Positions 2,636 to 61,737 are shown, counted from the first letter of the stretch. The stretch: DNA of 64,000 nucleotides from Actinomycetes bacterium (GCA_021796535.1 JAKABW010000005.1:75672-139671); one strand, 5' to 3'. The notes: generated by a model not told the origin, from the letters alone. A program made the numbers and translations.

Positions 2636-2638
2636 AGT

Positions 2639-3358: not shown

Positions 3359-3371
3359 CTAAAGCCTATTC

Positions 3372-5168: not shown

Positions 5169-5255
5169 TACTTTACTTTTATCAGCATGAGATAAATAGA
5201 TACGTCTTTCATAAAACAGTTATTTGTCTCAAATAAATCTACATAAAAAATTATA

Positions 5256-6161
5256 TTAATACTTTGTCATTACACGTTTTGCAGCCGTAATAAGATAAGA
5301 GTCGATCTGCGCCATTTCTTGAAATTCTGTAGGATGCTTATTTATAATTTGTTTTTGATAATATGACTCCACCGCCAGCCAAGTATTCATCATGTTTACC
5401 TTGACTTTGCAGTTATAGTCTGTAATAGCTTCTGCAATTTGCGCCTTTTTGGGCGGATGTTTATCATTTTTAATAGCCGGCGGCGGAGTCTTTATGTCGT
5501 AGCCATGCGAAGCCATGCAGGAAGACCATTTCTTTATATCGCTCAGCATTATGGGATTATCTTGCGTTTCGCTGACAGAATTATTTATTTGATTACCAAT
5601 AAAAGTATCTGTTGCATTAAGCTCCTTACCTTGCTTTGCCGTAATAAAATTTGTTGCAGAAACATATTTCAGACAACTATTTTGCATTATATAATATGCC
5701 TGCCCATACTTTTTCGCATAGTTATTATTTAAATCCATCACGTATTTCATATTCCTGTTAGCAAGTGGCGTAGCTGGGGACACATATATCTCATACCCAT
5801 GCACTTCAGCTTCTTTTAGGTTGTAGACCCCAAAAATGTGAGCACTTATTCCCAAGTGTTGAGCATAAAAAGGGTCCTGCTCTAAAGCAAGCAGTGAGTT
5901 GATTGCAAAAGGGACGCCTTTCTTGGCCATGCAATTTTGATCTAATAAAGTTCCCGCATAAAATACCGTTGCCTCCGTATTTGCCGTCAAGACGTAAGAG
6001 GAAAAAGGTAAAACCGGCGCTGGACTATTGACGGGAGGTATATGAATACTGCCTGTGTCTAGAGGTTTTGTCGAAGACAAACCAGAACTGCACGAAGAAA
6101 GAAGGGAAAGAAGAGCAATACTTATAATGATAAGAAATAGTTTTTTACATTTAATTTTCAT
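5256..6161 (-). CDS. Lipoprotein with 4 conserved Cys, unknown function (module A)
   Basis: Signal peptide plus lipobox LLSSC (Cys24). Mature-chain cysteines are C77, C163, C215 and C251. It shares INNSV...W[ST][ST]C[MV]A and other Cys contexts with the lipoprotein at 8116..9069. Confidence 0.7.
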   Translation of the reverse strand: MKIKCKKLFLIIISIALLSLLSSCSSGLSSTKPLDTGSIHIPPVNSPAPVLPFSSYVLTANTEATVFYAGTLLDQNCMAKKGVPFAINSLLALEQDPFYAQHLGISAHIFGVYNLKEAEVHGYEIYVSPATPLANRNMKYVMDLNNNYAKKYGQAYYIMQNSCLKYVSATNFITAKQGKELNATDTFIGNQINNSVSETQDNPIMLSDIKKWSSCMASHGYDIKTPPPAIKNDKHPPKKAQIAEAITDYNCKVKVNMMNTWLAVESYYQKQIINKHPTEFQEMAQIDSYLITAAKRVMTKY

Positions 6162-6277
6162 ATTTATTTATATCAATCTTTATAAAATAACTTAACAAAT
6201 TTACAGATTAGGTACATTGATTTTTAACAAATGTACCTAATCTGTAATACTTACTTCAAAGGTATCTCTATATCTTA

Positions 6278-6727
6278 CTACTGCCAAATAGCATAGGCGG
6301 GATTACATCCAGTCAACGTTGGGTCTTTTACATAGATGCTGTTAGACCAGCCCTCAGGGTATTGTCCATAATATGCTGCCGGATCAACGTATGTACCATT
6401 TGGATTCACTCCATACATGTCATACCACGTATTATTAGGTTGCAATTGTCCGTTGCCTACAAAATATAGAGTCTCACCGTCTGCCCAATAGGCGACGCAT
6501 ACACGATTACTGCTTCCGGCTACGGCGGAAATCCAATCATTTTGAGATGGCCCGGAATGCATGAGGAGCTGATTTACCGAAGGATAACTCTCTTGTCCTA
6601 TTGGATATATTGTCCTTGCAGATGCTATAGGAATAGCTACAAACATAGCAGTCAAACTGATTGCAAATGCAACTATTAGTTTATGAATATCTTCATACTT
6701 CTCCTTTTTTATAGAAACATAAGGCAT
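6278..6727 (-). CDS. Small secreted Trp/Tyr-rich protein, unknown function
   Basis: 149 aa. It has a Sec-type signal (LIVAFAISLTAMFVAIPIASA|RT). The mature chain of about 110 aa has 2 Cys and many W/Y/N/G residues. It is the first gene of the minus-strand module, next to the AT-rich divergent region. Confidence 0.6.
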   Translation of the reverse strand: MPYVSIKKEKYEDIHKLIVAFAISLTAMFVAIPIASARTIYPIGQESYPSVNQLLMHSGPSQNDWISAVAGSSNRVCVAYWADGETLYFVGNGQLQPNNTWYDMYGVNPNGTYVDPAAYYGQYPEGWSNSIYVKDPTLTGCNPAYAIWQ

Positions 6728-6769
6728 ATAAACTTACTTATATAGCTTATGTTATACTTGACCGTGGTT

Positions 6770-6798
6770 ATCCTATATATATATACATACGTTGTCAA
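6770..6798 (-). promoter_or_regulatory. Candidate sigma70-like promoter for 6278..6727 and the genes downstream of it
   Basis: On the minus strand the sequence reads TTGACA (6798..6793), a 17-nt spacer, then TAGGAT (6775..6770). It lies about 40 nt upstream of the ATG at 6727. The context is AT-rich, so a chance match is possible. Confidence 0.3.
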
Positions 6799-8067
6799 GC
6801 AATATTTAGTTATTTTAAACTCAATTCCAAAATAAGAGCCATTTGCTCTGGTGAGACTAAATACGACATGCCTATACTCCCGGTAAATTTCATGGAAAGT
6901 TTCCCCTTCTAGGCATTTTCTTGGGTTGCGGTAGGTTTTCACAGCATCGCTTAGGTCGCTGGGATCAGCTCTGGGATCCTCACAATTCATTGCAAACTAC
7001 ATTAACCAAAATATGAGGATGACTAAATAATGGAGTAAGCAGCGCCGCGGAAAGAAAAGACGGCCAGCAGATCATTTGACAATCCGAGGTCACAGATGTG
7101 TCAGCTTAGCTTAAGCTTTAGTATTCAAACCTCAAGCTAAAGCTATACGAAACCAACTTTAGGTTACCCAGAAAAAGTAAGCATGGGTTATACTCGCTTG
7201 TCTCTTCCCGTAATACCGGGTCGCAGTCAATGGTACTTGTTTTTGACTTTTCTTACATCTGCTGGCGGTATTTTAGCAATTCAAATACCAGACATCCTTA
7301 CACCAAAGTATCCCTTAAGCGTAGTTCTCCTATACTTAGAAAAGCATATATCGAGAGAAGAGTACCTGCGCATTCCCTAAAAATGCACTGTAGGGAAATT
7401 AATTTAAGAGTCTTAAGACAGTTGACAACAAAAATTGATGAACTCTAGACTGTTGGCAATTAAAAAGATACGTTTTATACGATTGAACGAAAGGAGTATT
7501 TAAATTCGCACATAAATGTCCTGTTAATACGATCAGAAGAGCTTTACTTGTAGTTTCCTTGATATTGAGTATTAGCTTTTTCAACCTCACCGAAGACGGC
7601 ACAAAGGCAAATACTTCAACAACTTAGGAATACGTAACTATATCGATACCAAGCCAATATCCATAAGACAAGGACCGAATGGTGTGCGTACGAGTAACTA
7701 TCTAAATACAAGCGTGGCTTACCTGATTGTGGCTTTTTTATCAAAATCATGGTGTCTGGAAATATGATGCGAGAGATTTGGATTACTGTTGGCCATCCCT
7801 CTGCAATACCTGGACGGAAAACAGATTTGAATTATTGCAGGTAGCATCCTCTTGCTTTATACATAGTGTTAGCGCCGAAAGTCTCATCCAAATCAGACTG
7901 ACTGCGTATCATATGTATCCACCTTGCACTGCCAACAACTCATTGATTTCTATGAATATTTCATTAAAAGTCGCCAGTTTATTTACTGTCAGATAAATAA
8001 ACTCCAGACAGATATGTCTACCTTGTCAATCTATTTTGATAAAAAAATAAAACTTTGCTTACTGCTA

Positions 8068-8096
8068 TTGACATAAAAATTTTACAAGCTATAAAT
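8068..8096 (+). promoter_or_regulatory. Candidate sigma70-like promoter for the module B operon
   Basis: TTGACA (8068..8073), a 16-17 nt spacer, then TATAAAT (8090..8096). It overlaps the first ATG of the ORF (8095), which argues for the ATG at 8116 as the real start with a very short leader. Confidence 0.35.
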
Positions 8097-8115
8097 GAGG
8101 GGCGTGAAATATATC

Positions 8116-9069
8116 ATGAAAGTTAGGTTACTTAAAATAAAGTTATTGAAACAATTGATGGCTATCGCGATAGGGTCGGCTATTCTGGCTTCTTGCAGTA
8201 GCAATTCTTCTTCCCTGTCGCAACCCGGTTCCCGTCAAAGTAAAGATACCCTCAATAGCAAGTCCACCCATCGTCCCTCTACCAAAATACCTGCCATATC
8301 TGAAAGCAGTTTGGCATCTTCTTTGTTTGTCGCCACTTCAGCTGAATATAATAATCCTCACTTTCAGAACCAATGGAGTAGTTTTATTACTTCCATGGAA
8401 AACAAAATGGTGGCATCGTGTTTAGAGAATTACGGATTCACGACACAAGAAACAGCATTTATCGCAAATCTACAGCTCAAGGGAAACTCTACAGACAACG
8501 TAGACTATCCTGATGTGGCACGCCTTAGGCAAGGTGACCTTGGTCTCGGTGGCCCTGCAACAACTGCCCAGATCCCAAAATCAAATATCCCTGCAAACGA
8601 AGAAAAAGCATGGGGCGTGGATCTCAGAAAGTGTTTTAACGTAAAATTGCCCGGACTGAACGGGATAGTTGCTCAACTGGATCCGATAAGAGCGATTTGG
8701 AATAATGATCTAACGTCGGTATGGATAAATAACTCTGTCACAACTGCATTGCGCACGTGGACAACTTGTGTAGCAGGCAGTGGCATGGCAAATATGCCGT
8801 CCACCCAACTCGGATTACGTGACTTCTTTGGCAAAATAGACGATTTGATGATGACACATACCAATTTGACTTATAACTCACCTCAGATAGTGGGTTTAGT
8901 CAAGATATATGGTAAATGCATTGCGCCTGTGGCAACAGCAATGGATAACGTACGCTCGCATGACCGTCACATGCTGCTTGCACAATATGCAAGCCAATTA
9001 AACGTAATAGCTCAAGAGATGAGTAAAGAAATATCTATAGACACTGCTAAGTATGGACTAAACATATAA
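8116..9069 (+). CDS. Lipoprotein with 4 conserved Cys, paralog of 5256..6161 (module B)
   Basis: The ORF opens at 8095. I prefer the start at 8116 (MKVRLLKIKLLKQLMAIAIGSAILASC, lipobox LASC). Mature-chain cysteines sit in contexts that parallel the module A lipoprotein: VASCLENYGF, RKCFNV, INNSVTTALRTWTTCVAGSG and YGKCIAP. Confidence 0.7.
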   Translation: MKVRLLKIKLLKQLMAIAIGSAILASCSSNSSSLSQPGSRQSKDTLNSKSTHRPSTKIPAISESSLASSLFVATSAEYNNPHFQNQWSSFITSMENKMVASCLENYGFTTQETAFIANLQLKGNSTDNVDYPDVARLRQGDLGLGGPATTAQIPKSNIPANEEKAWGVDLRKCFNVKLPGLNGIVAQLDPIRAIWNNDLTSVWINNSVTTALRTWTTCVAGSGMANMPSTQLGLRDFFGKIDDLMMTHTNLTYNSPQIVGLVKIYGKCIAPVATAMDNVRSHDRHMLLAQYASQLNVIAQEMSKEISIDTAKYGLNI

Positions 9070-9070
9070 T

Positions 9071-10339
9071 ATGTCCTCTTCAAAAGATGCTTCCCCAAAA
9101 AGTATCAAATTCATCACAATAGGGGTGCTGACCTCGCTTGCGCTAGCTGCCGGAGCTTTTATGGCAGGCTCCCATATCAAGTCGCCGGCGCAAGCCGCCG
9201 CTACGGCCAAACCTCCCCCTCTCAGTAACATAACGGTTCCCATACAAAAAGAAGTCTTAAAATCTGAGATAACTTTCCGGGGAAATGTCGTTGAATCCAA
9301 TCCTATCCCAATCCCCATGCCCACCATTCCGGCAGGTGACTTGCCGGTGGTTACCGGTGATTACGTAAAGACCGGAAATAAGGTTAGCCTGGGCTCTGTT
9401 TTGCTGGCAATAGCTGATCAGCCTATTATTTTAATGCAAGGTAATATTCCTGCTTTTAGAACCATGCAGTATCAAGATCAGGGTCCGGATATAGCAGAAC
9501 TACAAAATAACCTGATAGAACTTGGTTTTTCTATAGGAAATGATAAGAGCGGCACCTACGGGACAGGCACGGCTAAAGCCGTCAAAGGACTGTTTGGTTC
9601 CCTTGGATTTCAGCCAAATATGTCTGACTTCACGATTCCAAATACATCCAAGTCATCTGGGAAAACCAAGAAATTAAACTCTGCTGCAAAGACTGCCGCG
9701 GGTAATATATCAAATGACTCCGGCCAATCTCCCACTTTGACACCTTTGGCCACAGTGCCGCTGGGGGAAATAGTCTTTTTACCGAACCTTCCTACCTATG
9801 TAATAAGTGATAAGACATCTTTGGGAAAAAATCTGGATGCCCTGCCTCAGGGAGGAAATACGGCTCTTATAACGCTCGGATCTAATAATTTATCCGTTAC
9901 GGGTCAAGTTAGCTCTCTGGATGCCCAGAGCCTTCGAGACGGAATGGCTGCTACTCTGATAGATAACGTCAGTAACAAAAAGTGGACAGCAAAAGTAACG
10001 AGGATCTCGCAGGCCACTTCACAAGGGAACTCCGGGATACCGGAGGTTAACGTCAGTCTGGCTACTTCCACAAACAATAAACTTCCTCAATCCGAATTGG
10101 GCAACAACTTACAGATTGTTCTGACAGCGGCTTCAACTTCACGTCCCGTATTTGTGGTACCGATAGCAGCCATATATGCACGACAAAATGGTTCCAGTTT
10201 TGTCACTGTCGTAAAACATAACCGCCTTATAAATATAAAAATCGATGTGGGCCTTGATGTGGCGGGAAACGTAGAAATAACCCCAATAGGCAATCATATA
10301 TCAGCGGGCGAAAAAGTTGTGACCGGTGCCGCTAGGTAG
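9071..10339 (+). CDS. HlyD/MacA-like adaptor with a peptidoglycan-binding domain (module B)
   Basis: 422 aa with an N-terminal TM. It carries GPDIAELQNNLIELGFSIGNDKSGTYGTGTAKAV (PG_binding_1-like). Its C-terminus, PVFVVPIAAIYARQNGSSFVTVV...AGEKVV, matches the module A adaptor. The start is 1 nt after the lipoprotein stop. Confidence 0.7.
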   Translation: MSSSKDASPKSIKFITIGVLTSLALAAGAFMAGSHIKSPAQAAATAKPPPLSNITVPIQKEVLKSEITFRGNVVESNPIPIPMPTIPAGDLPVVTGDYVKTGNKVSLGSVLLAIADQPIILMQGNIPAFRTMQYQDQGPDIAELQNNLIELGFSIGNDKSGTYGTGTAKAVKGLFGSLGFQPNMSDFTIPNTSKSSGKTKKLNSAAKTAAGNISNDSGQSPTLTPLATVPLGEIVFLPNLPTYVISDKTSLGKNLDALPQGGNTALITLGSNNLSVTGQVSSLDAQSLRDGMAATLIDNVSNKKWTAKVTRISQATSQGNSGIPEVNVSLATSTNNKLPQSELGNNLQIVLTAASTSRPVFVVPIAAIYARQNGSSFVTVVKHNRLINIKIDVGLDVAGNVEITPIGNHISAGEKVVTGAAR

Positions 10340-10362
10340 ACAGTGGTTTCAAGGAACAGAAA

Positions 10363-11034
10363 ATGCCTGACCAACTCGTAGTATTAGAAAATATAAGCCG
10401 CATCTACGAAGGCCCTAATCCTGTCAATGCTTTAGTGAACGTATCCGCATCCATACAACAAGGCGATTTTGTCTCCATACAAGGCGTCTCCGGTTCCGGA
10501 AAATCTACCCTTCTAAACGTCTTAGGATTACTGGACCGGCCTACGGCAGGAAAATACATACTAAATGGTTTAGATGCAATGCATATATCGGAAAGAGAAA
10601 GAACCGATTTGAGGTGCTACTACATTGGATTTGTCTTTCAATCATTTCATCTGCTGGCAACCCGCTCTGCAGTGGAAAATGTCGAATTGCCTTTATACTA
10701 TCGAGGTATCAACCGTAAGAAGCGTAAAGAATCGGCAAGCAAAGCTATTGAAAAAGTAAACCTTCTCCACAGATCCGCTTCCTTCCCGGCAACGCTATCG
10801 GGAGGAGAACGTCAACGTGTAGCCATTGCCAGGGCCTTGGTCGGTTCACCAAAATTGCTTTTATGTGATGAACCGACAGGAAGTCTGGATAAAAATAGCT
10901 CTGACAATATTTTAGAGCTATTGGAAGAACTAAACGAAACAGGCCTTACTGTCATTATTGTCACCCATGATTCCGCAGTTGCCAACCGTTCAAAACGTCA
11001 CTTATACGTTGTGGAAGGACAACTTCATGAATAG
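10363..11034 (+). CDS. ABC transporter ATP-binding protein, MacB/LolD-like (module B)
   Basis: Motifs present are GVSGSGKST, LSGGERQRVAIARAL and LLLCDEPTGSLD. By eye it is roughly half identical to 2639..3358. Confidence 0.92.
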   Translation: MPDQLVVLENISRIYEGPNPVNALVNVSASIQQGDFVSIQGVSGSGKSTLLNVLGLLDRPTAGKYILNGLDAMHISERERTDLRCYYIGFVFQSFHLLATRSAVENVELPLYYRGINRKKRKESASKAIEKVNLLHRSASFPATLSGGERQRVAIARALVGSPKLLLCDEPTGSLDKNSSDNILELLEELNETGLTVIIVTHDSAVANRSKRHLYVVEGQLHE

Positions 11035-12334
11035 AATCAAATACAAAGTGTCGAAAGGAACAGAACAAAGAAAAAGTCATCTGAGAATAAAAGATGCCAT
11101 ATATGATGCTTTTTTAGGATTCGCCAGAAACCCCACCCGCACCTTTCTGGCCGCACTTGGTACTATTATTGGGGTTGGAACTTTGGTATCCGTATCCGGA
11201 ATTGCCACTACCGCAAAACAACAAGTCACATCGCAGTTCAATTCCATACTTGCCACAGAGATTACCGTAAGTGATAATAGCGTGGGACATATACCATTTA
11301 GCGCCCAAGAACGTGTCATGCACATTAAAGGGGTGGCGCATGCCGGTATTTCATGGCAACTTATGGCAGATGTAAATGTTGCGAGAGATTTATCAGTAAG
11401 TGGACCGCAGCAATTCTCTACGACGCTGCCCATCTATGCTTCTACACCGGATGGGTTAACTCAAATGCAGGCTGATATCATTACGGGAAGGTTATTTGAC
11501 AAAGGCAACGAAAGGCGCTTCGATCGCGTGGCATTGATAGGATCTATTGCCGCCCGGCAATTGGGCATCACAAGTGTAGCCAACCGACCGGCAATTTTTA
11601 TAAACGGAACCCCTTTCACCATAATAGGCATTGTCACGGGATTATTTGGACAACCCTCGGCGCTATCGTCAATAATAATTCCCGCGTCAACGGGCTTGGA
11701 TCTTATAGGTTCGCCTTATGCCGGCAGTTACTTGGGTCATAAAATCAATGAAAAATTTATAACAGAAAAGTCAAATGCGGTACTCCAGAATTCTTCCGCC
11801 CAAGAACCGACCATGTACGTCACAACGGCTAAAGGTGCCGCAGGTGTGGTTGGTAAAGAAATTGCTTATGCAATTTATCCACAAAATGTAAACGCTTTGT
11901 CAGTCATTACGCCACCCGGTCCGGATTTACTCAGTAACGCCATCGAGGGGACAACTGCCACTCTATTAATACTCTTGGGGATCGTAGCCCTGGTAACCGG
12001 AGGAGTTGTGATTGCCAATACCAGTCTATTGTCTGTTTTGGGAAGGACAAGTGAAATAGGACTTCGGCGGGCACTCGGAGCGAGACGAAAGCACATTGCA
12101 GTCCTTACTTTGCTTGAAGCAGGATGCATTGGCGCCATAGGGGGTATGATCGGCGCGTCACTGGGAGTTTTGGCAACCGTAGGAGTGGCGGCCACACATA
12201 CATGGACACCCGTACTATCATATCAGATCATCGTTATGGCACCTTTTGTAGGTGCTATCGTAGGCATTTTGGCTGGCATATACCCATCAATACGGGCAAC
12301 GAGAATAGAACCTGTTTCTGCATTACAGCACTAA
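11027..12334 (+). CDS. MacB/FtsX-type ABC permease (module B)
   Basis: The ORF opens at 10958. I prefer the ATG at 11027 (MNRIKYKV...), which overlaps the ATPase stop by 8 nt. The FtsX motif is GRTSEIGLRRALGARRKHI. Confidence 0.85.
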   Translation: MNRIKYKVSKGTEQRKSHLRIKDAIYDAFLGFARNPTRTFLAALGTIIGVGTLVSVSGIATTAKQQVTSQFNSILATEITVSDNSVGHIPFSAQERVMHIKGVAHAGISWQLMADVNVARDLSVSGPQQFSTTLPIYASTPDGLTQMQADIITGRLFDKGNERRFDRVALIGSIAARQLGITSVANRPAIFINGTPFTIIGIVTGLFGQPSALSSIIIPASTGLDLIGSPYAGSYLGHKINEKFITEKSNAVLQNSSAQEPTMYVTTAKGAAGVVGKEIAYAIYPQNVNALSVITPPGPDLLSNAIEGTTATLLILLGIVALVTGGVVIANTSLLSVLGRTSEIGLRRALGARRKHIAVLTLLEAGCIGAIGGMIGASLGVLATVGVAATHTWTPVLSYQIIVMAPFVGAIVGILAGIYPSIRATRIEPVSALQH

Positions 12335-20897: not shown

Positions 20898-22361
20898 ATG
20901 TTAAAAAGATTTATTCCCAATATCAAGGTATTTTTTGCTGGACTGGCAATTGTATTGGGTTCATTTACCTTGATTGGAAGTGTAGCTGCTCCCGCTTCAG
21001 CGGGAGCAGCTACTTCATGCCACACAATCACCGTGATACACCGCGGCACACACATGGTTTTTTTGTGGAAACGTGTCCGCATTGACAAACACGGCAGACG
21101 CTTTGTGAAAAGAGAGCACATCTGGAGATCCAGGACCGTCATCGTAAGGGGCAAAAAGGTTACCAAGAAAATACCGGTCAAGGCAAGACGCAGATACGCG
21201 ATAAAACTGCGCAGAGAGGAATGTGTGGTCACCACGACCACGGCGGCACCGACAACGACCACGGCGGCACCCACAACGACCACGGCGGCACCCACAACGA
21301 CCACGGCGGCACCGACAACGACCACGGCGGCACCGACAACGACCACGGCGGCACCCGCGGTTCAGCCCAATCCGATAAGTGCAGATTTATCTCTCAGCAC
21401 AAATACTGTTTCTTATATCGGGGGCAGCGTCGGCTTAACCTACACGTCCGACAGTGCCGCATCTTGCAGTCTTTCCTCAACGCCTGCCCTCTGGTCCGGA
21501 AACAATCCTGCCGCGGTAAGCTGTAACGGCAGCTATTCTCTGGCAATCGATCAATCGGCTTCCGGGGGGCAGTGGACAATTACTTTTACCGCAACAGGAC
21601 AAAACGGTCAATCTGTATCGGATTCCCAAGTCCTCACACAAGACGCTCCTCCGCCTTTTAATATCACACCCAATTGGAGCGGATACGTAGTGCCTTCCGC
21701 CACGGCGATAATAACCGACGTCAGCGGAAACTGGACGGTCCCGACTCTCAATTGCAACGACACCCAAAACGCTACTGAGTCAGATTGGGTTGGGATAGGC
21801 GGTGCACAAAGCGGAACCAACTCGGGGGGAGTATTGCTGCAAACCGGCATCGACAACTCTTGCGTAAACGGAATACAAGAGAGCAGCGGATGGTGGGAAG
21901 AATTTCCGTCTAATCCAAATTATGGGATGCCATTTAGCAACTTTCCCGTATCCCCAGGCGACAATATACAGGCAAGTGTTTTTGAAAACAGCGGCGGCTC
22001 CTGGACCACGTTGCTGGAAAACCTTTCGACGGGACTGGAGGGGATCATGGTCACGGGCGAAGGCTGGGGCGTGGCACCCATCGGCGCCACGGGGTTTTCT
22101 GACCAGGGCACGACAACCAACGTATCCTATGCGGGAGGTTACACCGCCGAATGGATTGTGGAAGATCCCACCGGATCTTCAGGGAACTTAGTCCCGTTTG
22201 CCAATTACGGAAGCGTTACATTCACCAATCTCGGGACAAGCCTCAATCCATGGTATCTGACCGCAAGCGAAGGATACGCGATACAGCAAAACGGTTCTGT
22301 ACTTTCCGTACCGTCCCTTCCAGGAAGCGACGGTTTCAGCGTATACTACACCGGTCCTTAG
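20898..22361 (+). CDS. Secreted glutamic peptidase, family G1 (eqolisin-like), with a basic N-terminal module, a TTTTAAP x6 linker and an Ig-like domain
   Basis: It has a signal peptide (AGLAIVLGSFTLIGSVAAPASA). The C-terminal domain carries NWSGYVV..., DWVGIGG...VLLQTGID (Gln context) and AEWIVEDP (Glu context). These match the conserved blocks of scytalido/aspergilloglutamic peptidases. Confidence 0.75.
   Translation: MLKRFIPNIKVFFAGLAIVLGSFTLIGSVAAPASAGAATSCHTITVIHRGTHMVFLWKRVRIDKHGRRFVKREHIWRSRTVIVRGKKVTKKIPVKARRRYAIKLRREECVVTTTTAAPTTTTAAPTTTTAAPTTTTAAPTTTTAAPTTTTAAPAVQPNPISADLSLSTNTVSYIGGSVGLTYTSDSAASCSLSSTPALWSGNNPAAVSCNGSYSLAIDQSASGGQWTITFTATGQNGQSVSDSQVLTQDAPPPFNITPNWSGYVVPSATAIITDVSGNWTVPTLNCNDTQNATESDWVGIGGAQSGTNSGGVLLQTGIDNSCVNGIQESSGWWEEFPSNPNYGMPFSNFPVSPGDNIQASVFENSGGSWTTLLENLSTGLEGIMVTGEGWGVAPIGATGFSDQGTTTNVSYAGGYTAEWIVEDPTGSSGNLVPFANYGSVTFTNLGTSLNPWYLTASEGYAIQQNGSVLSVPSLPGSDGFSVYYTGP
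21231..21356 (+). repeat. Six tandem in-frame 21-bp repeats (ac[ca]acgaccacggcggcacc[gc]) encoding TTTTAAP x6
   Basis: Read directly. The units start at 21231, 21252, 21273, 21294, 21315 and 21336. They differ only at the Pro third position and at one base of the first unit. Confidence 0.95.
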
Positions 22362-53396: not shown

Positions 53397-54785
53397 CTAA
53401 GAAGAACTGGCTCCGGAATTTACCGGGGTGAAAACCATGTCAAACGGTTGAACGTTACTCTTCGGAAAACTTACGTCCAGCCCGTTGACCTCTATGGTGG
53501 CATACGGTGGCGCCCCCACTCTGACGACGATGGGGCCCGAAGCGTGATAGGTGGCGCTGGAACCGGGACTTATCGTACTCATCCACAGATAAGGTCCGTT
53601 GGCTTTGGCCTGTACTCCCACCCAGCACTGACCCTGGGATGAAGCTTTGATGGTGATCGTATAGGTCCCCTTTGGCTCGGCGTAGGAAACAACGGAGGGA
53701 GAAGCCGAGATGGGCGCGATTCCGTTCGTCCCGGTCGATCCGGAATTGACGGGAGGGGGAACGGCTGCTTTTTTCTTCGGCTTGGTCCCTGACGTACCGG
53801 TGTTTGTTTTGGCGGCGTGATGTCCTGATACCAGAGCGGCATGTCCCGATCCGCCGTTTCCGGATGTCAATTGCTCTATTCCGGCAGCCATGGCGGCCAC
53901 AGCCACCACCGATGCCGCCACCGTAGAGATTTTGCGTAACTTGGCACTGCCGGTTATAAAGCCGAAACCGTCTTCGTCGTCAGATTCCCCGTCCGATTCG
54001 GCAGGAGCAGACTTAACCGCTGTTTTTCCGCCGGATCCGGACGTATCCAGGCGGCGCTTGGTCACCGTGGGAGATTTGATGCCGCTTTCCAGTTCCGCAA
54101 GAGAGATGACTTCCGTCAACGGCCCTTCGGCGGCGGAGGGCTTTCCCGAACTTATTGCGCCTTCGGGAACGGCTTTTGCCACCCCGGGCAACGACGGACT
54201 TGCTTTCGCCGCAACATCCTCTTTTTCCGCCGGCTTCTTTTGTGCCGCAGTCCGTTTTACGCCGCGTCCGGTCGGCGGTGAGGCTTTTTCGGTTTCTTTT
54301 CCGTTTGCCGCCGGCGGGAGCGGAGTTTCCGGCCTGAGTTTACTGACCAGTTTGCTCAGGTCTTGATCGGGTGCGGGCGGATCGATTTTTACCTTATCGG
54401 TGCCCGTCGGAGAAAAAGCCGACGAAGAGCTGAAGTCGTCAAAGACAATTTTGGTGTCCCCGGTTATATTGCTGGGCAATATTTTAACCCTCGGTACCTT
54501 CTCGATATTCGGGGCATTCCTGGCAACCACGATTCTTTTCGCATCGGATTGCCCGTCGACCGGTGAAGGATTTATTTTCAGAATGTGAGGCTGCCCTATT
54601 TCTTCATCCGTGGGTTGGTGGACATCACCGAAAGACTCGGAGCGCTTTACGACGTTGCTCAAGACGCCAAGGGTTTTTCTGTAACCTATGACCGACCTTT
54701 TTTCTATTGAGGATCTTCTCATATTGAGAGCGAACACTCCTATGACCAAAAGAACAATTACCAATACCGCCACGATTGCGACCAT
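53397..54785 (-). CDS. Membrane-anchored protein with a RodZ C-terminal (DUF4115-like) domain and a long low-complexity linker
   Basis: It has an N-terminal TM (VAIVAVLVIVLLVIGVFAL) and about 300 aa of a P/A/S/K-rich linker. The C-terminus YTITIKASSQGQCWVGVQA...VVRVGAPPYATIEVNG resembles the RodZ C-terminal domain. No N-terminal HTH is seen. Confidence 0.5.
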   Translation of the reverse strand: MVAIVAVLVIVLLVIGVFALNMRRSSIEKRSVIGYRKTLGVLSNVVKRSESFGDVHQPTDEEIGQPHILKINPSPVDGQSDAKRIVVARNAPNIEKVPRVKILPSNITGDTKIVFDDFSSSSAFSPTGTDKVKIDPPAPDQDLSKLVSKLRPETPLPPAANGKETEKASPPTGRGVKRTAAQKKPAEKEDVAAKASPSLPGVAKAVPEGAISSGKPSAAEGPLTEVISLAELESGIKSPTVTKRRLDTSGSGGKTAVKSAPAESDGESDDEDGFGFITGSAKLRKISTVAASVVAVAAMAAGIEQLTSGNGGSGHAALVSGHHAAKTNTGTSGTKPKKKAAVPPPVNSGSTGTNGIAPISASPSVVSYAEPKGTYTITIKASSQGQCWVGVQAKANGPYLWMSTISPGSSATYHASGPIVVRVGAPPYATIEVNGLDVSFPKSNVQPFDMVFTPVNSGASSS

Positions 54786-55144
54786 GGCTTCACCTCACCG
54801 CCGGTAGTAAAATTTACGCTCCGTGCCGTCCGTGTCAGATTTTAGAACAACGGCACATTACCAGATTAGAACATCAAACAGCCTACGGCAAAGCAGACCG
54901 AAGTAATTTTATTCTCTCTGTATTGCCGCTCTTATCATAATGGCAGTTCGGAGGACAGAGTAAAAACCAAAACAAATGTTATTATATTGTAACTTTTACG
55001 ACAAATTCCTGTTCTTCTCTCATAAAATAAGTGTAACCAACTTTCCGAACGAGGTTTGACGGTATAGAAATCCGGATCTTTGAGTCAAAAATGTGCACCG
55101 AGACAGCTCGCGTAATCTAACCTGTAGAGGGGGACAAATTATCA

Positions 55145-57739
55145 ATGTCAGAAATACACATCTCACACAGCATGAGCGATAAAGATTTTGCCGAAAAGCT
55201 GCGCTCTGCTTTGGCAAGAAAAGGGCACGGAGTACTGACATCAACGGGGGAAGAAGGTCCTTTAAAAAAAGAAGGGGGCTCTGATTTTGCCGGATCTCCG
55301 GACGTCTTGCTGTGTATTTTGAGTCCCTCCTTTCTTAACAGCACATCCTGCCTGAAAGAACTCATGGATGCCATGAGCCGTGACATTCCGATTGTGAAAA
55401 TTAACCACAAAACTTCAGAAAAAGACCGTCTGCCGACAGTCTTGGCAGAAGGAGTCTCTATACCGGAAATCGGTCTTTTCAACGAAAAATACGAAGATTC
55501 TCTTAACCGTCTTTTGAAATACGCCGACGGCTTGTCACGGACGGAAACAAAAAAACCCGGCACAAACGCCAAACCGCGGGCGGCGGGACAGAAACCGTCC
55601 GCGGCGTTAAAAATCCCCAAAAGCACGGTTTTGATGACGCTGCTTTTGGTCGTAGCGCTCGTATTTGACTTTGTCAATACCTCTTCCTCTCCCGCTTCCG
55701 GCTTCAAACAAAGTTCCGCTCAGCTTGCAGCCGCATCCGGAGCCGCATTAAACAGCGATCCGGCGTTGGCCGTCAAACTGGCCCTTGACGCTTTACAAAA
55801 AGGCGGGTCGGGAGCCGCCGCGGCCGCTTTGCGACAGAGCCTGCCGATGATGCAGGAAAAAGCTCTTCTCTACCAATCGGGAACCTCCGACGCCACCGAT
55901 GCCGCATTCAGCCCCGTCGGCAACGAAGCCGCCTCCGTCGGCACAAACGGTTTGATAAGCATTTGGTCGACAAAGTCGGACTCGGTTGTCAAAACAATCA
56001 GGGAGCCCGATTCCGCCCCGATCTCTTCCGTCGCCTACAATTCCAACGGTACGGCTCTCCTTACGGCAAGCCTCTCCGGTTATGCCAGGGTATTCAGCCC
56101 GCAAAGCGGCAAATTGCTGGCCACTTTCAAGCAAAAACAAGGGGCTCCCCTCTATGACGCGCAGTTCAGCCCAAACTCCGCAGAAGTCGTAACGGCCGCC
56201 GCCAACGGAGCGGTGGGAATATTTTCCATTGCCACCCAAAAGCAGGTGGGCCAGATAACCTCGCCGGGCAATGCGGCCACTTTTGCCGCTTCCATAGCAC
56301 CCAACGGCAACGCTCTGGCAATAGCTTCGGTAAGCGGGTCGGCCAGTATTTACTTGGCCGGAAAAGCCGCCCCCGTGGTATTAAAAATCGGAGGCGAGGT
56401 AACAGCCCTGAGTTTCACCCCGGACAGTCGGCAGCTTGTGACTGCCGAAGGTAACGGCACGGCAAAAGTGTGGCAGGTTTCAGACGGCAATTTGATAGAA
56501 ACTCTGGGCGCCGTGGGAGATCCGTCTTTGTCCGGCGTGGCGGTGAGCCCGGACGGACAGCAGATTGCGACTGTGGGGGCAAACGGTACCTTTAACATTT
56601 ACAACTCTTCGACCGGCATACTCACGGAGCAGCTGAAGGGTGCCACGGGCCTCATCAACAGCGTCGGTTACAGTTCTGACGGAAAAGAACTGCTCACCGC
56701 GGGCCAAAACGGCACCGTACGCATATGGTCGGCTTATCCCGTCGGGCAGACTCTTTCCTTCCAAGAACCGGGCGGAGCCGATATTCTAAACGCGGCATAC
56801 AGCCCGAACGGAAAACAGATTGCGACGGTAAGCGTGGACGGAAGCATCAGAATCTGGGATGCCCTTACCGGGAAACAAGTCTCGATCGCATCTTTTCCCA
56901 ACAGCGCCAGCCCGACTGCCGTCGCTTTCAGCCCCTCCGGGAAGGAACTGGCCGTGGGAGGAAGCAACGGTCAGGGAATCCTCTATAGGGCCGACAAGCG
57001 GCTTACCGTCACATTTGTCAATCCGACCAAAGCTCCTTTCCTTTCGGCGGCTTTCAACCCGAACGGGAAAACACTTTTATTTTCGACACAGGACGGATAC
57101 GCCCTGATATACAGCGTATCCACCGGACGTCTCATCAAAAGCATCAGGGAGTCAAGCGGGGCTACTGTTTACCAGGCCGTCTACAGTCCAAACGGCAACC
57201 AAATAGCAACCGTGTCGCGTGACGGTTCGCTGAATCTGTACAGCGCCGCGACGTATCACAAGACTTGGTCCGCCTCCGACAACGGCAGCCCTTCCCTCTT
57301 GACGGCAGCCTTCAACACCTCCGGAACCGAAATCGTGACCTGTTCTTCCAACGGCGAGGTGACGATCTTCAACGCCCTTACCGGCCGGGCCCTGGAAACG
57401 ATTCCCAATGACTCCAACCTGCTTGTAAGCGACGCTTCTTTTGAGCCCGGCACATCCGACGTGGCGATAGCTTACAACAACGGGGAGACCGCCTTATATG
57501 ACGCCTCGGATTTGCAACTGCTTGCCCTGTACGGCGCAAACGGCTACCCCGCCGTTTCGCAAGTCGTTTTTTCCCCGCAAGGCAATACTCTTGCCACCGT
57601 CAATAACTTGGGCATGGTGTCCCTGCTGTCAACGTCAATGGCACAAAATATAGCCGCATTGGAAAAAACGGCAGAAAGCAATTTGCCGACATTCAGTCCG
57701 ACGGAGTTGAAAGAATACCGCCTTTACCTGAATTCCTGA
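55145..57739 (+). CDS. TIR domain - single transmembrane helix - 14x WD40-like repeat protein
   Basis: aa 1-135 are TIR-like (IHISHSMSDKDFAEKL..., DVLLCILSPSFLNSTSCLKELMDAM, IPIVKINH). A K/R-rich linker follows, then a TM at aa 160-177 or so (55622..55675). After that come 14 tandem repeats of about 42 aa of the form ...[FY]SP[DNS]G..[LI][AV]T....G...[IV][WYF]. SD AGAGGGGGA precedes the ATG. Confidence 0.8.
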   Translation: MSEIHISHSMSDKDFAEKLRSALARKGHGVLTSTGEEGPLKKEGGSDFAGSPDVLLCILSPSFLNSTSCLKELMDAMSRDIPIVKINHKTSEKDRLPTVLAEGVSIPEIGLFNEKYEDSLNRLLKYADGLSRTETKKPGTNAKPRAAGQKPSAALKIPKSTVLMTLLLVVALVFDFVNTSSSPASGFKQSSAQLAAASGAALNSDPALAVKLALDALQKGGSGAAAAALRQSLPMMQEKALLYQSGTSDATDAAFSPVGNEAASVGTNGLISIWSTKSDSVVKTIREPDSAPISSVAYNSNGTALLTASLSGYARVFSPQSGKLLATFKQKQGAPLYDAQFSPNSAEVVTAAANGAVGIFSIATQKQVGQITSPGNAATFAASIAPNGNALAIASVSGSASIYLAGKAAPVVLKIGGEVTALSFTPDSRQLVTAEGNGTAKVWQVSDGNLIETLGAVGDPSLSGVAVSPDGQQIATVGANGTFNIYNSSTGILTEQLKGATGLINSVGYSSDGKELLTAGQNGTVRIWSAYPVGQTLSFQEPGGADILNAAYSPNGKQIATVSVDGSIRIWDALTGKQVSIASFPNSASPTAVAFSPSGKELAVGGSNGQGILYRADKRLTVTFVNPTKAPFLSAAFNPNGKTLLFSTQDGYALIYSVSTGRLIKSIRESSGATVYQAVYSPNGNQIATVSRDGSLNLYSAATYHKTWSASDNGSPSLLTAAFNTSGTEIVTCSSNGEVTIFNALTGRALETIPNDSNLLVSDASFEPGTSDVAIAYNNGETALYDASDLQLLALYGANGYPAVSQVVFSPQGNTLATVNNLGMVSLLSTSMAQNIAALEKTAESNLPTFSPTELKEYRLYLNS

Positions 57740-58512: not shown

Positions 58513-61500
58513 ATGCACAATCAGTGGTTGTCTAACTACTCTAAGTTGTTTAAATTATTCTTTGTTACTCTTTCTTTACCGGTTTTATTTCTTGCAGTCT
58601 CATTGCCGGATATGCTGTGGGCATCGGCTCAGGTTACGACTGGAACCGCTCAAACAAGCACCGGATCCATTGTAAACACAAAATTGGTGCCGTTTGGCCA
58701 AGGCGGCAACAGCGGTCTGGGGAATCCTTTTCCTGTCAAAAAAGAGTTTCTTATTCATATGGACTTTGTCTTGAAAAGTTCCGATCAGGCATTTTCCTCT
58801 CCAAACCGGGTTTTTGTGTCCGAAGTCACTTCGTGGCTAAAAAGATACGGGTTCGCCCCCGCCCTGCACGGAAATGCCCTTGCCGTGACCGGGAATTCCC
58901 TTGTCTTGAAAAAACTTTTGCACACAACTCTTTTCTGTTACGGGAAGTTCTGCCGACCCAACGCCACAAAGCACATGACATACGCTTTTGGCAGACCTTA
59001 CGTGCCATCGTATATAGCACATGACCTGCTTGCGGTTATCGGTCTGAATAACGCGGCGACACTTGCTCCTTCCGTAAACGAAACTTTGCCGGGAAAAAAC
59101 ATCCGAGGCACTTCGCCCGTATCTTCTGAGAGCATCACCGCCAATCCTGTTTTGGCCAAAGACAAACCGGCAAGCGCATTGTCACCAAGCCCGGCTTCGA
59201 CCGTCAACGGACAATCCGGACTGACTGCCTGCCAGTCAGCAACTAATTTTGCCCTGGGCACGGGCTTTTATCTGCTGTCGGCCGTTGGAAATCATTACGG
59301 CGTGTCCCAGCTTCTTTCCGCCGGAGATCAGGGGGCCGGCGTCACCATAGGCGTTGCGGAACTGGGAACTGCCAATTCGGGCGACATTGCCGCTTATGAC
59401 CAATGTTTTGGTTTGTCAACGGGCAATGTTTCGACCGTCAACGTAGACGGCGGCGGGCCGGCCGGGCTCGACACCCTGGAAGCCGATTCGGACATAGAGC
59501 AATTGCAAACCAATGCCCCGCAGGCCAAAATTATAAGTTACAACGGTCCCAACCTGGACTGGTCGAGCTTGTATGATGTGGTGAACGCGATGGTAAACCC
59601 TCCTGCCGGAGACCCTTTGCCCCAGGTGATATCGATCAGTTACGGAGGATGCGAAAGCGAATCCGGGGATATCTCGGCGCTGGACGCCTTATTTCAACAG
59701 GCCGCTGCCCAAGGTCAGAGCGTCTTCGTCGCCTCGGGTGACGCCGGTGCGGAAGCATGCAGGAACGAGCCCGACACGCTGGCAGTAAATTACCCCGGTT
59801 CCGATCCCAACGTGACATCCGTGGGCGGATCGGCCATGATCAACTCCGGAGTGAGCAACGGCTCCGGCGACGTCGTCTGGAACGACTGCCAAAACGCAAC
59901 CAGCCAGACTTGTTCTCAACAGGGATTCGGCGGTGCGGGCGGAGGCGGAGTTTCCTCACTGTTTCCGGAACCGGGCTTCCAATCGGCTGCCGTGGGAACG
60001 ATCAACGGCCCGTGCGGTTCTTCCGGCGGCTGCAGGGCGGCACCGGACATATCGGCCAACGCTTTGGACAACGCCGTCTATTACGACGGGTCTTTTGCCG
60101 GCGTAGACGGAACAAGCCTTTCCACGCCCCTCATAGCCGCCATTACGGCGGATGTCATCCCCACCTGCAGCACCCCGATAGGCGATTTGGCGCCCAGACT
60201 TTACCGCTACTACAGCGAATTCGGTTACCAACAGCTTCTCAACCCGATTACAAGCGGGAACAACGACTGGACCGATGCTTTCGGGGGAGCCTATTATCAG
60301 GCAAAAGCCGCCTACAACCTGGCAACCGGACTGGGAACTCTGAATGCTCCCGCTCTGGCCTGCCCGTCCGTCTCTTCGCTCTCTTCGGCCGCATCTCCTC
60401 CCGGATCGGAAATTACGATCAACGGCACAAATCTCTCCGCCGCTTCCGTCATGTTCGGCACACAAACGGCAAATATAACCTCTCGGACCTCCAGCAGTCT
60501 GCAGGTCATTGTCCCCGCCGGGCAAGGCGGCACTTCATTGGAGGTTTCCAATCCGACCGGATCGGCCCCGGGCATCAACTTTTATTACTCCGATCCCGCA
60601 GTCATTATGAACACTCCTTCACCCTACCCGGCTCCGATCGGATCCGATCTGAACCTGCAGGTTTCCTCTTACGGCAACCCGACGGCAAGTTTGAGCGAGC
60701 AGGGAAACCTCCCGGCGGGAACCGCATTTACGGCTTCGGCAAACGGCACGGCCACCATATCCGGTACCCCCGCACCCGGATCGCAGGGAAGCTACACCAT
60801 AACGCTCACGGCAACCAACTCTCTTGGTTCGCAAAGCAAGTCTTTTACCGTCACCGTGGGTAATGCCCCGAACATCGCCGCTCCTTCCTCAATCAACACA
60901 GGCGAAAATAACACATTAAATGTTATATTGGCCGAGGGTAACCCCCAGCCCGTGATCACGGAGGACAACGGGTCGTCTTTGCCGAGCGGCCTGTCCATCG
61001 TCGACAACATGCTGAGCGGTACGGTCGGCGGCAACGCCGGCGGCAACTACGTACTCAACTTCACCGCAAACAACAGTTTCGGATCGGCGGAGTCCAGCGT
61101 AACGATATCGGTGGCCTCCCCCGTAGCGACTACCGTTCAGGCAACGACTACGACAACGACCCCGCCGGCAACTACGACAACGACTCAAAGCCCTGTTGTG
61201 AAGATCGGCAACCCCATTTACCTTATCCCTTCGGGTGAAATTATCACAAATAAGCAGATTGCCCTGCGTGCAGATTGCCCGCTTACGCGTTGCAACGGCC
61301 ATCTGACTATCGGCAGGGGCAAAATGGTCTTGGCCAGCGGTGGTTTCACCGTAGCTCACGGCACAAATCGTCTGATTGTGGTAAGACTCAACGGCGTCGA
61401 ACAGCACAGGGTCGCAAGCATCGCAAGCAAGTTGACAGCTTTGTTGCTACGCAGAGACATCGGGAAAAATGCACAAAAAATGGCAAAGGCACAACTGTCG

Positions 61501-61737
61501 CTCAAAAAGACCAAAAATATTTCGGCCGCCAAACAACAACGGGAGCGTATGCCGCTTGCCGTAAGACAGGTACGGATCGTTGCCGTGCTGACAATATATC
61601 TGTCGCAAAAGCCGGTAAAGCGGGAAACAATATCGCTTATGGTCAAACCGGCAAAAAAGGCGGCAAAGAAAAAACGGGTTTTGCAAAAAGTCATCCGCTC
61701 CGGGCAAATAAGCACTGGCGGGAGAAAAAAACTTTAG
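58513..61737 (+). CDS. Secreted sedolisin (peptidase S53) with pro-domain, IPT/TIG and Ig-like repeats, a Thr-rich linker and a Lys/Arg-rich C-terminal tail
   Basis: It has a signal peptide (LFFVTLSLPVLFLAVSLPDMLWASA). The S53 blocks are LEADSDIEQL (Glu/Asp), VFVASGDAGAE and GVDGTSLSTPLIAA (Ser). An IPT-like segment reads SEITINGTNLSAASVMFG...SLEVSNP. Ig-like repeats read TISGTPAPGSQGSYTITLTATNSLG. The last 95 aa or so are very K/R-rich. Confidence 0.8.
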   Translation: MHNQWLSNYSKLFKLFFVTLSLPVLFLAVSLPDMLWASAQVTTGTAQTSTGSIVNTKLVPFGQGGNSGLGNPFPVKKEFLIHMDFVLKSSDQAFSSPNRVFVSEVTSWLKRYGFAPALHGNALAVTGNSLVLKKLLHTTLFCYGKFCRPNATKHMTYAFGRPYVPSYIAHDLLAVIGLNNAATLAPSVNETLPGKNIRGTSPVSSESITANPVLAKDKPASALSPSPASTVNGQSGLTACQSATNFALGTGFYLLSAVGNHYGVSQLLSAGDQGAGVTIGVAELGTANSGDIAAYDQCFGLSTGNVSTVNVDGGGPAGLDTLEADSDIEQLQTNAPQAKIISYNGPNLDWSSLYDVVNAMVNPPAGDPLPQVISISYGGCESESGDISALDALFQQAAAQGQSVFVASGDAGAEACRNEPDTLAVNYPGSDPNVTSVGGSAMINSGVSNGSGDVVWNDCQNATSQTCSQQGFGGAGGGGVSSLFPEPGFQSAAVGTINGPCGSSGGCRAAPDISANALDNAVYYDGSFAGVDGTSLSTPLIAAITADVIPTCSTPIGDLAPRLYRYYSEFGYQQLLNPITSGNNDWTDAFGGAYYQAKAAYNLATGLGTLNAPALACPSVSSLSSAASPPGSEITINGTNLSAASVMFGTQTANITSRTSSSLQVIVPAGQGGTSLEVSNPTGSAPGINFYYSDPAVIMNTPSPYPAPIGSDLNLQVSSYGNPTASLSEQGNLPAGTAFTASANGTATISGTPAPGSQGSYTITLTATNSLGSQSKSFTVTVGNAPNIAAPSSINTGENNTLNVILAEGNPQPVITEDNGSSLPSGLSIVDNMLSGTVGGNAGGNYVLNFTANNSFGSAESSVTISVASPVATTVQATTTTTTPPATTTTTQSPVVKIGNPIYLIPSGEIITNKQIALRADCPLTRCNGHLTIGRGKMVLASGGFTVAHGTNRLIVVRLNGVEQHRVASIASKLTALLLRRDIGKNAQKMAKAQLSLKKTKNISAAKQQRERMPLAVRQVRIVAVLTIYLSQKPVKRETISLMVKPAKKAAKKKRVLQKVIRSGQISTGGRKKL

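Follow-up and report, generated by a model that had tools for sequence, protein, structure and literature searches.

A TIR-WD40 protein without an NTPase, predicted to be membrane-anchored, in an Actinomycetes genome

Single-pass Ser/Thr kinases and ECF57-type extracytoplasmic function (ECF) sigma factors that carry WD40 arrays, known from Planctomycetota and other phyla (PMC11032199, PMC8999054), are among the closest described counterparts of the protein encoded at positions 55,145 to 57,739 of a 64,000-nucleotide stretch of DNA from an Actinomycetes bacterium (GCA_021796535.1, JAKABW010000005.1:75672-139671; the window, hereafter, is this whole stretch). They share the chassis predicted for it, of cytoplasmic output, one transmembrane (TM) helix and outside WD40 array. 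Their arrays are true sequence relatives of that of the window protein (E down to 1e-98), and some of them share the motif of the stalk that follows its helix. The output is a kinase or a sigma factor in these proteins and a TIR domain in the window protein; there is no experimentally defined ligand for them either. In Planctomycetota, DeepTMHMM always placed the kinase domains of single-spanning kinases in the cytoplasm and mostly placed their WD40 and tetratricopeptide repeat (TPR) arrays in the periplasm (PMC11032199), and ECF57 sigma factors with WD40 extensions are on record (PMC8999054). The chassis is already known; the TIR output is the new element.

Toll-like receptors (TLRs; TLR1, 2, 6 and 15) likewise span the membrane once, with an ectodomain made of repeats and a TIR in the cytoplasm, the layout predicted for the window protein. 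Juxtaposition of their TIRs, driven by the ectodomain, is the model borrowed for it here. TLR TIRs are the best PDB sequence matches of the profile built from the window protein's family (E 9e-16) and include the top Foldseek match. In TLRs, however, the ectodomain is a leucine-rich repeat solenoid and the protein is type I with a C-terminal TIR, whereas the window protein has WD40 repeats and a predicted type II order of TIR, TM helix and ectodomain, and no adaptor TIR proteins are known. On this comparison the resemblance is a topological analogy and is not evidence of common descent of the whole architecture.

Conflict proteins with a TIR-STAND-WD40 or TIR-STAND-TPR layout (Kaur et al. 2020, PMC7159879) also join a TIR and a WD40 array in one polypeptide and show a similar phyletic bias towards Actinomycetota and other complex bacteria. 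The WD40 arrays of STAND conflict proteins are homologous to that of the window protein (for example those of P0047, P0051 and P0056). These proteins have a central nSTAND, NACHT or NB-ARC NTPase, whereas the window protein has no NTPase and has a TM helix between TIR and WD40. Catalytic bacterial TIRs (AbTir, BtpA/TcpB, Thoeris ThsB, TIR-STING and SARM1-type NADases) share the TIR fold and an aligned Glu; compared with them the window protein has Ser68 in place of Trp, a remodelled BB-loop and a predicted membrane anchor. Unlike Thoeris (ThsB plus ThsA) and the other known TIR defence systems, it has no PADLOC match and no partner nearby. The Nostoc punctiforme WD40 protein 2YMU has 14 repeats in two propellers, as in the model of the window protein, but is a propeller fragment only, with no TIR or TM context. 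In Dictyostelium TirC, a TIR is tethered to the membrane by a single hydrophobic helix, and release or clustering has been proposed as its activation (PMC13142454). TirC differs in having an N-terminal anchor, no ectodomain and a canonical, active NADase TIR, and in being eukaryotic.

According to a 2024 survey of TIR systems in E. coli, the TIR systems of bacteria seem to lack TLR-like features such as TM domains and repeat ectodomains (PMC11350192). No description of a bacterial TIR-TM-WD40 architecture was found in a literature search whose scope left out most subscription journals. The combination of a TM helix and an outside WD40 array with a TIR output appears to be undescribed, while each part is known separately.

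The window protein is read here, with a probability of roughly 0.55, as a type II single-pass protein of TIR, TM helix, stalk and double propeller that signals by clustering or release. A small divergent TIR_2 domain would lie in the cytoplasm, tethered by a disordered basic linker to one TM helix, and outside the membrane a three-helix stalk would carry two seven-bladed WD40 propellers. The propellers would bind an extracytoplasmic ligand or partner, probably multivalent or envelope-associated. The signal would then pass by clustering that the ligand drives, the route taken by TLRs and receptor kinases, or possibly by regulated proteolysis that frees the TIR; rigid conformational signalling is hardly possible across the disordered linker that joins TM helix and TIR. 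By either route TIRs would become locally more concentrated and could assemble with one another, and this association would switch on an output, either NAD+ cleavage or nucleotide-signal production via Glu72, or scaffold signalling. Release by proteolysis is a proposal already made for fusions of sigma and anti-sigma factors (PMC8999054) and, speculatively, for the TM-tethered amoebal TirC (PMC13142454). Of these parts, a TIR output activated by clustering, argued by analogy with TLRs, is tentative and falls somewhat short of an even chance, and NADase chemistry specifically, judged from the sequence of the TIR, is doubtful.

The gene and the parts of its product are as follows (AF2, AlphaFold2; A2, an alignment of 26 family members; ORF, open reading frame).

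55145..57739, + strand: complete ORF, 864 aa plus TGA stop (ORF map; full-length orthologues)
55145..55540, + strand: divergent TIR_2 domain, aa 1-132, predicted cytoplasmic (Pfam, family profile, AF2)
55238..55303, + strand: remodelled BB-loop/alphaB segment, aa 32-53, TSTGEEGPLKKEGGSDFAGSPD (alignment A2, AF2)
55358..55360, + strand: codon of Glu72, candidate catalytic residue (motif S66-T-S-C69-L-K-E72-L)
55541..55621, + strand: basic, Pro-rich disordered linker, aa 133-159, with 5 K, 1 R and 4 P (AF2, A2)
55622..55681, + strand: predicted TM signal-anchor helix, aa 160-179, STVLMTLLLVVALVFDFVNT, N-in/C-out (hydropathy, flank charge, AF2)
55691..55849, + strand: three-helix juxtamembrane stalk, aa 183-235 (AF2, pLDDT 86-91)
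55856..56782, + strand: WD40 blades 1-7, aa 238-546, first predicted seven-bladed propeller, predicted extracytoplasmic (Pfam, repeat parsing, AF2)
56783..57649, + strand: WD40 blades 8-14, aa 547-835, second predicted seven-bladed propeller, predicted extracytoplasmic (Pfam, repeat parsing, AF2, Foldseek)
57650..57736, + strand: two C-terminal helices, aa 836-864 (AF2 helices 836-846 and 852-863)

This anatomy of TIR, basic linker, TM-like helix, stalk and 14 blades with no NTPase is very nearly certain. Each of its elements had been named in the sequence-only reading of the window and was recovered by profile searches, alignment and modelling. In a full-length search P0001, of 882 aa, was the one true orthologue (59% identity over 100% of the length); the remaining proteins matched through WD40 only. 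P0001 comes from assembly GCA_027407925.1, and a near-identical copy is present in 'MAG: Actinomycetes bacterium MAS3.bin18'. The orthologues (P0001/L001 and L002, in two Actinomycetes metagenome-assembled genomes) are 58 to 59% identical to the window protein over its full length and lie in identical synteny, so the ORF is not a chance reading frame.

Residues 4 to 124 match Pfam TIR_2 (PF13676) over the complete profile (1-122 of 122) at 38.8 bits (E 1.5e-9), above the gathering cut-off of 28 bits. This match was obtained by scanning the first 242 residues alone, as a scan of the whole protein is swamped by WD40 and other beta-propeller families. In the full-length AF2 model (45-row alignment, mean predicted local distance difference test (pLDDT) 86.6, predicted template modelling score 0.71), the beta/alpha core (aa 3-132) has a pLDDT of 82 to 87 except at residues 36 to 45. 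Its modelled elements are betaA (3-7), alphaA (10-25), betaB (29-31), betaC (54-59), alphaC (67-78), betaD (83-87), alphaD (98-101), betaE (104-107) and alphaE (116-132), and residues 1 to 31 are 68% identical to the orthologue.

Glu72 lies in the motif PSFLNSTSCLKELM (aa 61-74). In A2, Cys69 and Glu72 of its 'C..EL' part are two of only eight invariant columns. The A2 profile matches solved TIRs with E down to 9e-16 (TLR15, 1, 2 and 6, the Bacteroides-type TIR 7uxr, AbTir, BtpA, SARM1 and MyD88), and in the profile alignments the family Glu is in register with the Glu of WxxxE in TLR15 ('WCQYEL'), 7uxr ('WTEYEL') and TLR1 ('WCHYEL'). Glu72 is thus at the catalytic position of solved TIRs, as the sequence-only reading had assigned it. 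Residues 32 to 53 lack the family-conserved 'VWxDxEDIxPASxW' of betaB, BB-loop and alphaB; a shorter, unrelated stretch stands there, as it does in the orthologue. No TIR system in PADLOC and nothing specific in NCBIfam matched the window protein.

The linker of 27 residues between TIR and TM helix has a pLDDT of 32 to 48 (AF2 disorder at about 134-162) and is 33% identical to that of the orthologue, which carries an additional Arg-rich insertion on the TIR side of the helix. The helix that follows, modelled at 162 to 178, is the only strongly hydrophobic segment of the protein: Kyte-Doolittle hydropathy over 19-mers peaks there at 2.12 (aa 161 to 179), and the next best segment reaches 1.33. 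Its sequence is 30% identical to the orthologue and its hydrophobicity is kept. Lys and Arg number four to five on its N side and one on its C side. The same bias is found in the family, in which the 15 residues on each side hold on average 5.25 Lys and Arg on the N side vs 2.64 on the C side (n = 36, Wilcoxon p = 3e-7), and an Arg cluster, 'SRRxxTRRQRR', recurs on the TIR side.

The composition of the protein changes at the helix. The propeller region is 11.4% charged and 54.9% S/T/N/Q/G/A, and the TIR region is 28% charged and 33% S/T/N/Q/G/A, like local cytoplasmic proteins. The 31 ORFs of the window without a hydrophobic segment average 23.7% charged residues (standard deviation (SD) 4.0, minimum 16.1), and the five with one N-terminal signal-like segment average 13.4% (SD 2.3), four of these five being 48 to 53% S/T/N/Q/G/A. 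The propellers are therefore 3.1 SD below the cytoplasmic ORFs in charge and inside the range of the exported class. In the orthologue the split falls at the same place (23.9% charged in the TIR part vs 11.3% in the propellers). The TIR is also placed inside by domain logic, because the kinase, sigma and helix-turn-helix (HTH) modules of relatives must be cytoplasmic and share its position relative to the helix. Taken together with the published kinases, hydropathy, flank charge, domain logic and the composition split make an N-in/C-out orientation, with the TIR inside and the propellers outside, probable; it is the best-supported reading, as had been proposed from the sequence on the positive-inside rule.

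The stalk (62% identical to the orthologue) carries the motif QLAA..(x)..DP.LA..LAL.AL......A..ALRxxLP, which P0056 and P0001 have in common with the TIR family; kinase- and nSTAND-TM-WD40 relatives carry this stalk as well. Beyond it, Pfam WD40 scores 163.8 bits, along with many propeller families. Repeat parsing gives 14 units of about 43 aa (residues 250-835), and AF2 gives 56 beta-strands (14 x 4; residues 238-829). The best Foldseek match is the double propeller 2YMU from Nostoc, also of 14 repeats (E 1e-44, 24% identity over 597 columns), followed by the tandem-propeller (7+7) proteins Pwp2, Utp21, Apaf-1 and Aip1. The 7+7 split and its boundary are inferred from the blade count and these structural matches. 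Identity of blades 1 to 7 to the orthologue is 74, 86, 86, 75, 70, 57 and 58%; blades 1 to 3 (82%) are the most conserved part of the protein, and the distal blades are moderately more variable than the proximal ones, with no hypervariability apparent. The C-terminal helices are 55% identical and keep the terminal LNS. Neither a Walker A motif (GxxxxGK[ST]) nor an NTPase family was found in Pfam, NCBIfam and PADLOC scans of the protein. Membership of the TolB or BamB families was considered and rejected, as the weak profile scores are far below the curated cut-offs (55 vs 343 bits) and amount to a generic propeller signal.

The architecture is not peculiar to the window protein. An exhaustive phmmer search with residues 1 to 255 against 1.84 billion representatives of 50% identity clusters gave 81 matches at E <= 1e-3. 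About 50 of these have a TIR (around aa 1-130), a hydrophobic helix near residue 205, the stalk motif and a WD40 array with no Walker A, the array typically extending to about 900 to 1000 aa. Three proteins from the full-length search (P0067, P0087 and P0112) have the same TIR-TM-stalk-WD40 layout. Source names are generic, such as 'toll/interleukin-1 receptor domain-containing protein [Acidimicrobiales bacterium]' and 'WD40 repeat protein', and a search with the A2 profile matched only short or fragmentary nameless TIR-TM proteins. By their sequences, NTPase-free TIR-TM-WD40 proteins are a real, sizeable and uncharacterised bacterial family. The statement that bacterial TIR-WD40 proteins normally bear a STAND module and are cytoplasmic is too simple, given this family and the many nSTAND-WD40 relatives with a TM-like helix.

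Most members of the family have a conserved helical module of about 75 aa between TIR and TM helix (A2 columns ~160-235; aa 130-205 of P0124), with the consensus 'TDLDWVRxHTxW..KAxEW...RDxSFLLSGxEL..AExWL....GKxPxPTxLQ..Y..ASR'. No Pfam model covers this module or the stalk that follows the helix. A precise deletion has removed the module from the window protein and P0001, in which the 27-aa basic linker takes its place. The window protein aligns with all other elements of the family (TIR with C..EL, TM helix, stalk, WD40 and no NTPase) and, on this alignment, is a trimmed member of it.

Recurrence of the layout was borne out by this survey of homologues; conservation of neighbouring genes was not, as distant members P0067 and P0087 sit in unrelated contexts, among housekeeping genes. 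No conserved partner gene was found in the window or in the contexts of P0067 and P0087, and the family therefore behaves as a stand-alone single-gene unit. On the contig of P0087, a second large WD40 protein (L004 6232-9066, 944 aa) is encoded two genes downstream of the TIR-TM-WD40 gene, which hints at local paralogous expansion in some genomes.

The chassis extends beyond the TIR family. One strongly hydrophobic internal 19-mer is present in 86 of the 120 best WD40 relatives, typically between the N-terminal module and the WD40 array and with the more basic flank on the N side. The N-terminal modules are Ser/Thr kinase, sigma-70, XRE HTH, nSTAND1/AAA_16 and caspase. Among all proteins fetched, a TM-like helix just before the array was found in 132, an N-terminal signal-like segment in 10 and no strongly hydrophobic segment in 24. 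From these sequences, the outputs of the broader chassis are Ser/Thr kinase, ECF sigma, HTH, nSTAND, caspase and TIR.

Many actinomycete nSTAND1/AAA_16-WD40 proteins (among them P0051, P0056 and P0109) have an Arg-flanked, strongly hydrophobic helix between NTPase and WD40, followed by the stalk. In P0056, the C-terminus of nSTAND1 runs directly into such a helix and then into the stalk motif of the window protein. A TM-like helix in nSTAND-WD40 proteins is not mentioned in the passages of the conflict-system literature covered here. Should this helix be membrane-spanning, the sensor repeats of many 'STAND-WD40' conflict proteins, a large group, would lie outside the cell.

The TIR-WD40 gene is monocistronic, with a divergent neighbour upstream and a convergent one, the gene of an RmlC-like dTDP-sugar epimerase, downstream. 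Its start is preceded by only eight in-frame codons and then a stop, and a Shine-Dalgarno-like run, GAGGGGGA, lies about 11 nt 5' of the ATG. The region between the gene and its upstream neighbour is given below.

54786..55144, + strand: intergenic region of 359 bp, common to the 864-aa gene and the divergent RodZ_C-domain gene (ORF map)

This region presumably holds the promoter of the TIR-WD40 gene. In a promoter scan of its + strand nothing exceeded shuffle expectation, and for regulatory RNA it gave no Rfam match at E <= 1. Across it lies a RodZ_C-domain membrane protein (53397-54785, - strand; 462 aa) with an N-terminal TM helix, a long low-complexity middle rich in Pro, Ala, Ser and Lys, then another hydrophobic segment and, at its C-terminus, a RodZ_C domain (33.7 bits); the HTH part of RodZ is undetectable. 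The wider neighbourhood includes genes for SufD-SufB, a GT2 glycosyltransferase, an exported S53-like protease with Ig-like domains, a DUF6941 protein and a methyltransferase.

Gene order around the TIR-WD40 gene is identical on the contig of the orthologue. Protein identity between the two genomes is 93% for SufB, 92% for DUF6941, 83% for GT2 and 79% for RmlC, and 59% for the TIR-WD40 gene, 55% for the RodZ_C protein and 54% for the S53 protease. By these figures the gene has changed to much the same extent as its envelope-exposed neighbours, within a stable core-genome block. GC content at the locus is ordinary. PADLOC found no defence gene among ten neighbours, its only matches being generic ones to an ATPase and a methyltransferase; no second TIR or WD40 ORF occurs within the 64-kb window, and no ThsA, STING or SAVED partner was found among the ORFs of the window or by PADLOC on the ten neighbours. 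A defence island at this locus was rejected, as PADLOC was negative for the protein and its ten neighbours and the setting is syntenic core genome; the earlier view that the neighbours do not form a classical defence island holds, and they are envelope or housekeeping genes. The TIR-WD40 gene, inherited vertically and standing alone, belongs to the core genome and lies among envelope genes, and for this reason surveying of the envelope or cell surface is as likely a role as phage defence.

Exported peptidases of the S53 (sedolisin) and A4 (eqolisin) types are encoded in the window (Peptidase_A4 and S53 genes, 20898-22361 and 58513-61737). The S53/sedolisin-like protein has 1074 aa, a Pro-kuma_activ prodomain, TIG/He_PIG/PKD Ig-like domains and a hydrophobic C-terminal segment with a Lys/Arg tail. 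S53 and A4 are acid-protease families, and the eqolisin type is rare in bacteria. The exported proteins of the window are unusually charge-poor (11 to 14% K+R+D+E). Because of these two peptidases of acid-protease families and the charge-poor exported proteins, the host may be an acidophile with charge-poor outward-facing proteins.

Elsewhere in the window, the region 1400-12334 is of low GC (0.38 to 0.45, vs about 0.52 elsewhere). It holds two mirrored cassettes that point away from a gene-poor centre at about 6.2 to 8.1 kb, each with genes for an exported PG_binding_1 protein, an ABC ATPase and a MacB_PCD/FtsX permease. The region may have arisen by duplication or horizontal transfer, as a module of an efflux or lipoprotein-release-like kind.

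Several observations weigh against reading the window protein as a signalling receptor, most of them in the TIR. Where WxxxE has its Trp, the window protein has Ser68 and the family has Glu or Gln (A2). The BB-loop/alphaB segment is without the conserved W/D/W residues (A2), is modelled as coil with no helix at a pLDDT of about 50 and is the least conserved of all regions between the orthologues (18% identity). The TIR_2 score of 38.8 bits compares with 90.6 for a typical family member. An AF2 model of the N-terminal part by itself was poor (pLDDT 61.6), and with this model Foldseek returned the TIR of TLR15 first but weakly (E 9.5e-4), mixed with SIS and flavodoxin-like folds; the TIR assignment rests on the sequence profiles and not on this model. 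AlphaFold had been expected to give two propellers and an intact TIR active site; the model gave 14 blades, read as tandem propellers, and the intact site is doubtful in view of Ser68, the coil of the BB-loop segment, its lost W/D/W residues and the 18% identity of that segment between the orthologues.

The BB-loop helps to assemble the composite active site in characterised TIR NADases (SARM1 and AbTir). Glu72 is necessary and not sufficient, and the NADase competence of the window protein, as judged from its sequence, is therefore uncertain. Nor is any ligand, partner or downstream effector identifiable.

The topology meets objections too. The uncharged run of the window helix is only 15 residues long and is followed by the conserved Asp175, and in relatives the charge of the WD40 region stays at about 20% whether a TM helix is present or not (20.0 vs 21.2%, p = 0.08). 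A charge-poor WD40 array was consequently rejected as a general marker of topology and is valid within this genome only. The low pLDDT of the helix (52 to 55), its short run with Asp175 near the end, the classically cytoplasmic location of WD40 proteins and the failure of WD40 composition to separate TM from non-TM relatives are what would be expected if the propellers were cytoplasmic.

The best-surviving alternative, which is nonetheless unlikely, is an envelope scaffold with a vestigial TIR, in which an anchored WD40 platform would organise enzymes or polymers of the cell wall or envelope and the TIR, decaying or purely structural, would have no part in signalling or NAD+ cleavage in this lineage. 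TolB and BamB propellers act as scaffolds. Stable synteny among the genes for GT2, the RodZ_C protein, the RmlC-like epimerase and the exported S53 protease would fit such a role, as would the peak of conservation in blades 1 to 3 (82%) and its minimum in the BB-loop (18%). Loss of the juxtamembrane module and of the BB-loop motifs, the missing Trp of WxxxE and a TIR_2 score that is low relative to the family are likewise what a decaying TIR might show. The profile matches to TolB and BamB are weak, and at 55 bits against a cut-off of 343 they say only that a propeller is present. A vestigial TIR is harder to reconcile with Cys69 and Glu72, which are invariant in the family and kept in both orthologues, with the 68% identity of residues 1 to 31 or with a TIR core that models confidently (pLDDT 82 to 87). 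A useless domain of 130 aa would be expected to be lost or disrupted at 59% overall identity.

Less probable still is a dedicated anti-phage sensor, a special case of the receptor reading, in which phage adsorption or envelope damage, detected by the outside propellers, would lead to NAD+ depletion by the TIR and to death or arrest of the cell (abortive infection). Bacterial TIRs with the conserved Glu are commonly anti-phage, and E. coli is protected by TIR systems of a single gene, one of which has a TM segment (PMC11350192). The WD40 module is common to nSTAND and caspase proteins, and fusions of TIR, caspase and nSTAND to WD40 are characteristic of conflict systems in multicellular bacteria (Kaur et al., PMC7159879). 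Against this stand the negative PADLOC result for the TIR part and the lack of defence genes among ten neighbours, a setting of syntenic core genome with ordinary GC and no island, and the housekeeping genes beside distant family members. The distal blades are without the hypervariability that such a sensor might show, and the catalytic pocket of the TIR is atypical.

That the propellers are cytoplasmic, with the helix peripheral, re-entrant or buried or with an N-out orientation, is improbable in view of a hydropathy of 2.12 vs 1.33 elsewhere, family helices with uncharged runs of 19 to 25 residues and the Arg cluster on the N side, the same element behind obligately cytoplasmic domains in 86 of 120 relatives (with signal peptides in others), the published periplasmic placement of kinase-WD40 proteins (PMC11032199) and a composition that, in the window protein as in the orthologue, is of the exported type only on the C-terminal side of the helix; the N-out variant would in addition need export of a 160-aa domain without a signal peptide, contrary to the charge bias.

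The receptor reading would matter for how TIR signalling is triggered. To our knowledge, the bacterial TIR systems that have been characterised all respond to events within the cell. It is conceivable, if rather unlikely, that TIR-TM-WD40 proteins as a group are prokaryotic cell-surface TIR receptors, in which an outside cue (phage, neighbouring cell or envelope fragment) would cause clustering and so the making or destruction of NAD-derived signals with no STAND module or partner. The window copy is reduced and possibly catalytically compromised, and a canonical Acidimicrobiales-type member of about 900 aa is the better experimental entry point. If the receptor reading is true, bacterial TIR signalling could also be driven from the cell surface, and the family would offer a simple one-gene model of how engagement of an ectodomain activates a TIR. 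Bacteria would then have a functional counterpart of Toll-like receptors, inverted in domain order, that works without a STAND switch or partner gene, and the question of whether TIR signalling of the receptor type has more than one origin would gain a data point. Attention would also turn to a larger, little-studied class of bacterial one-component receptors in which a shared TM-stalk-WD40 module is combined with interchangeable outputs.

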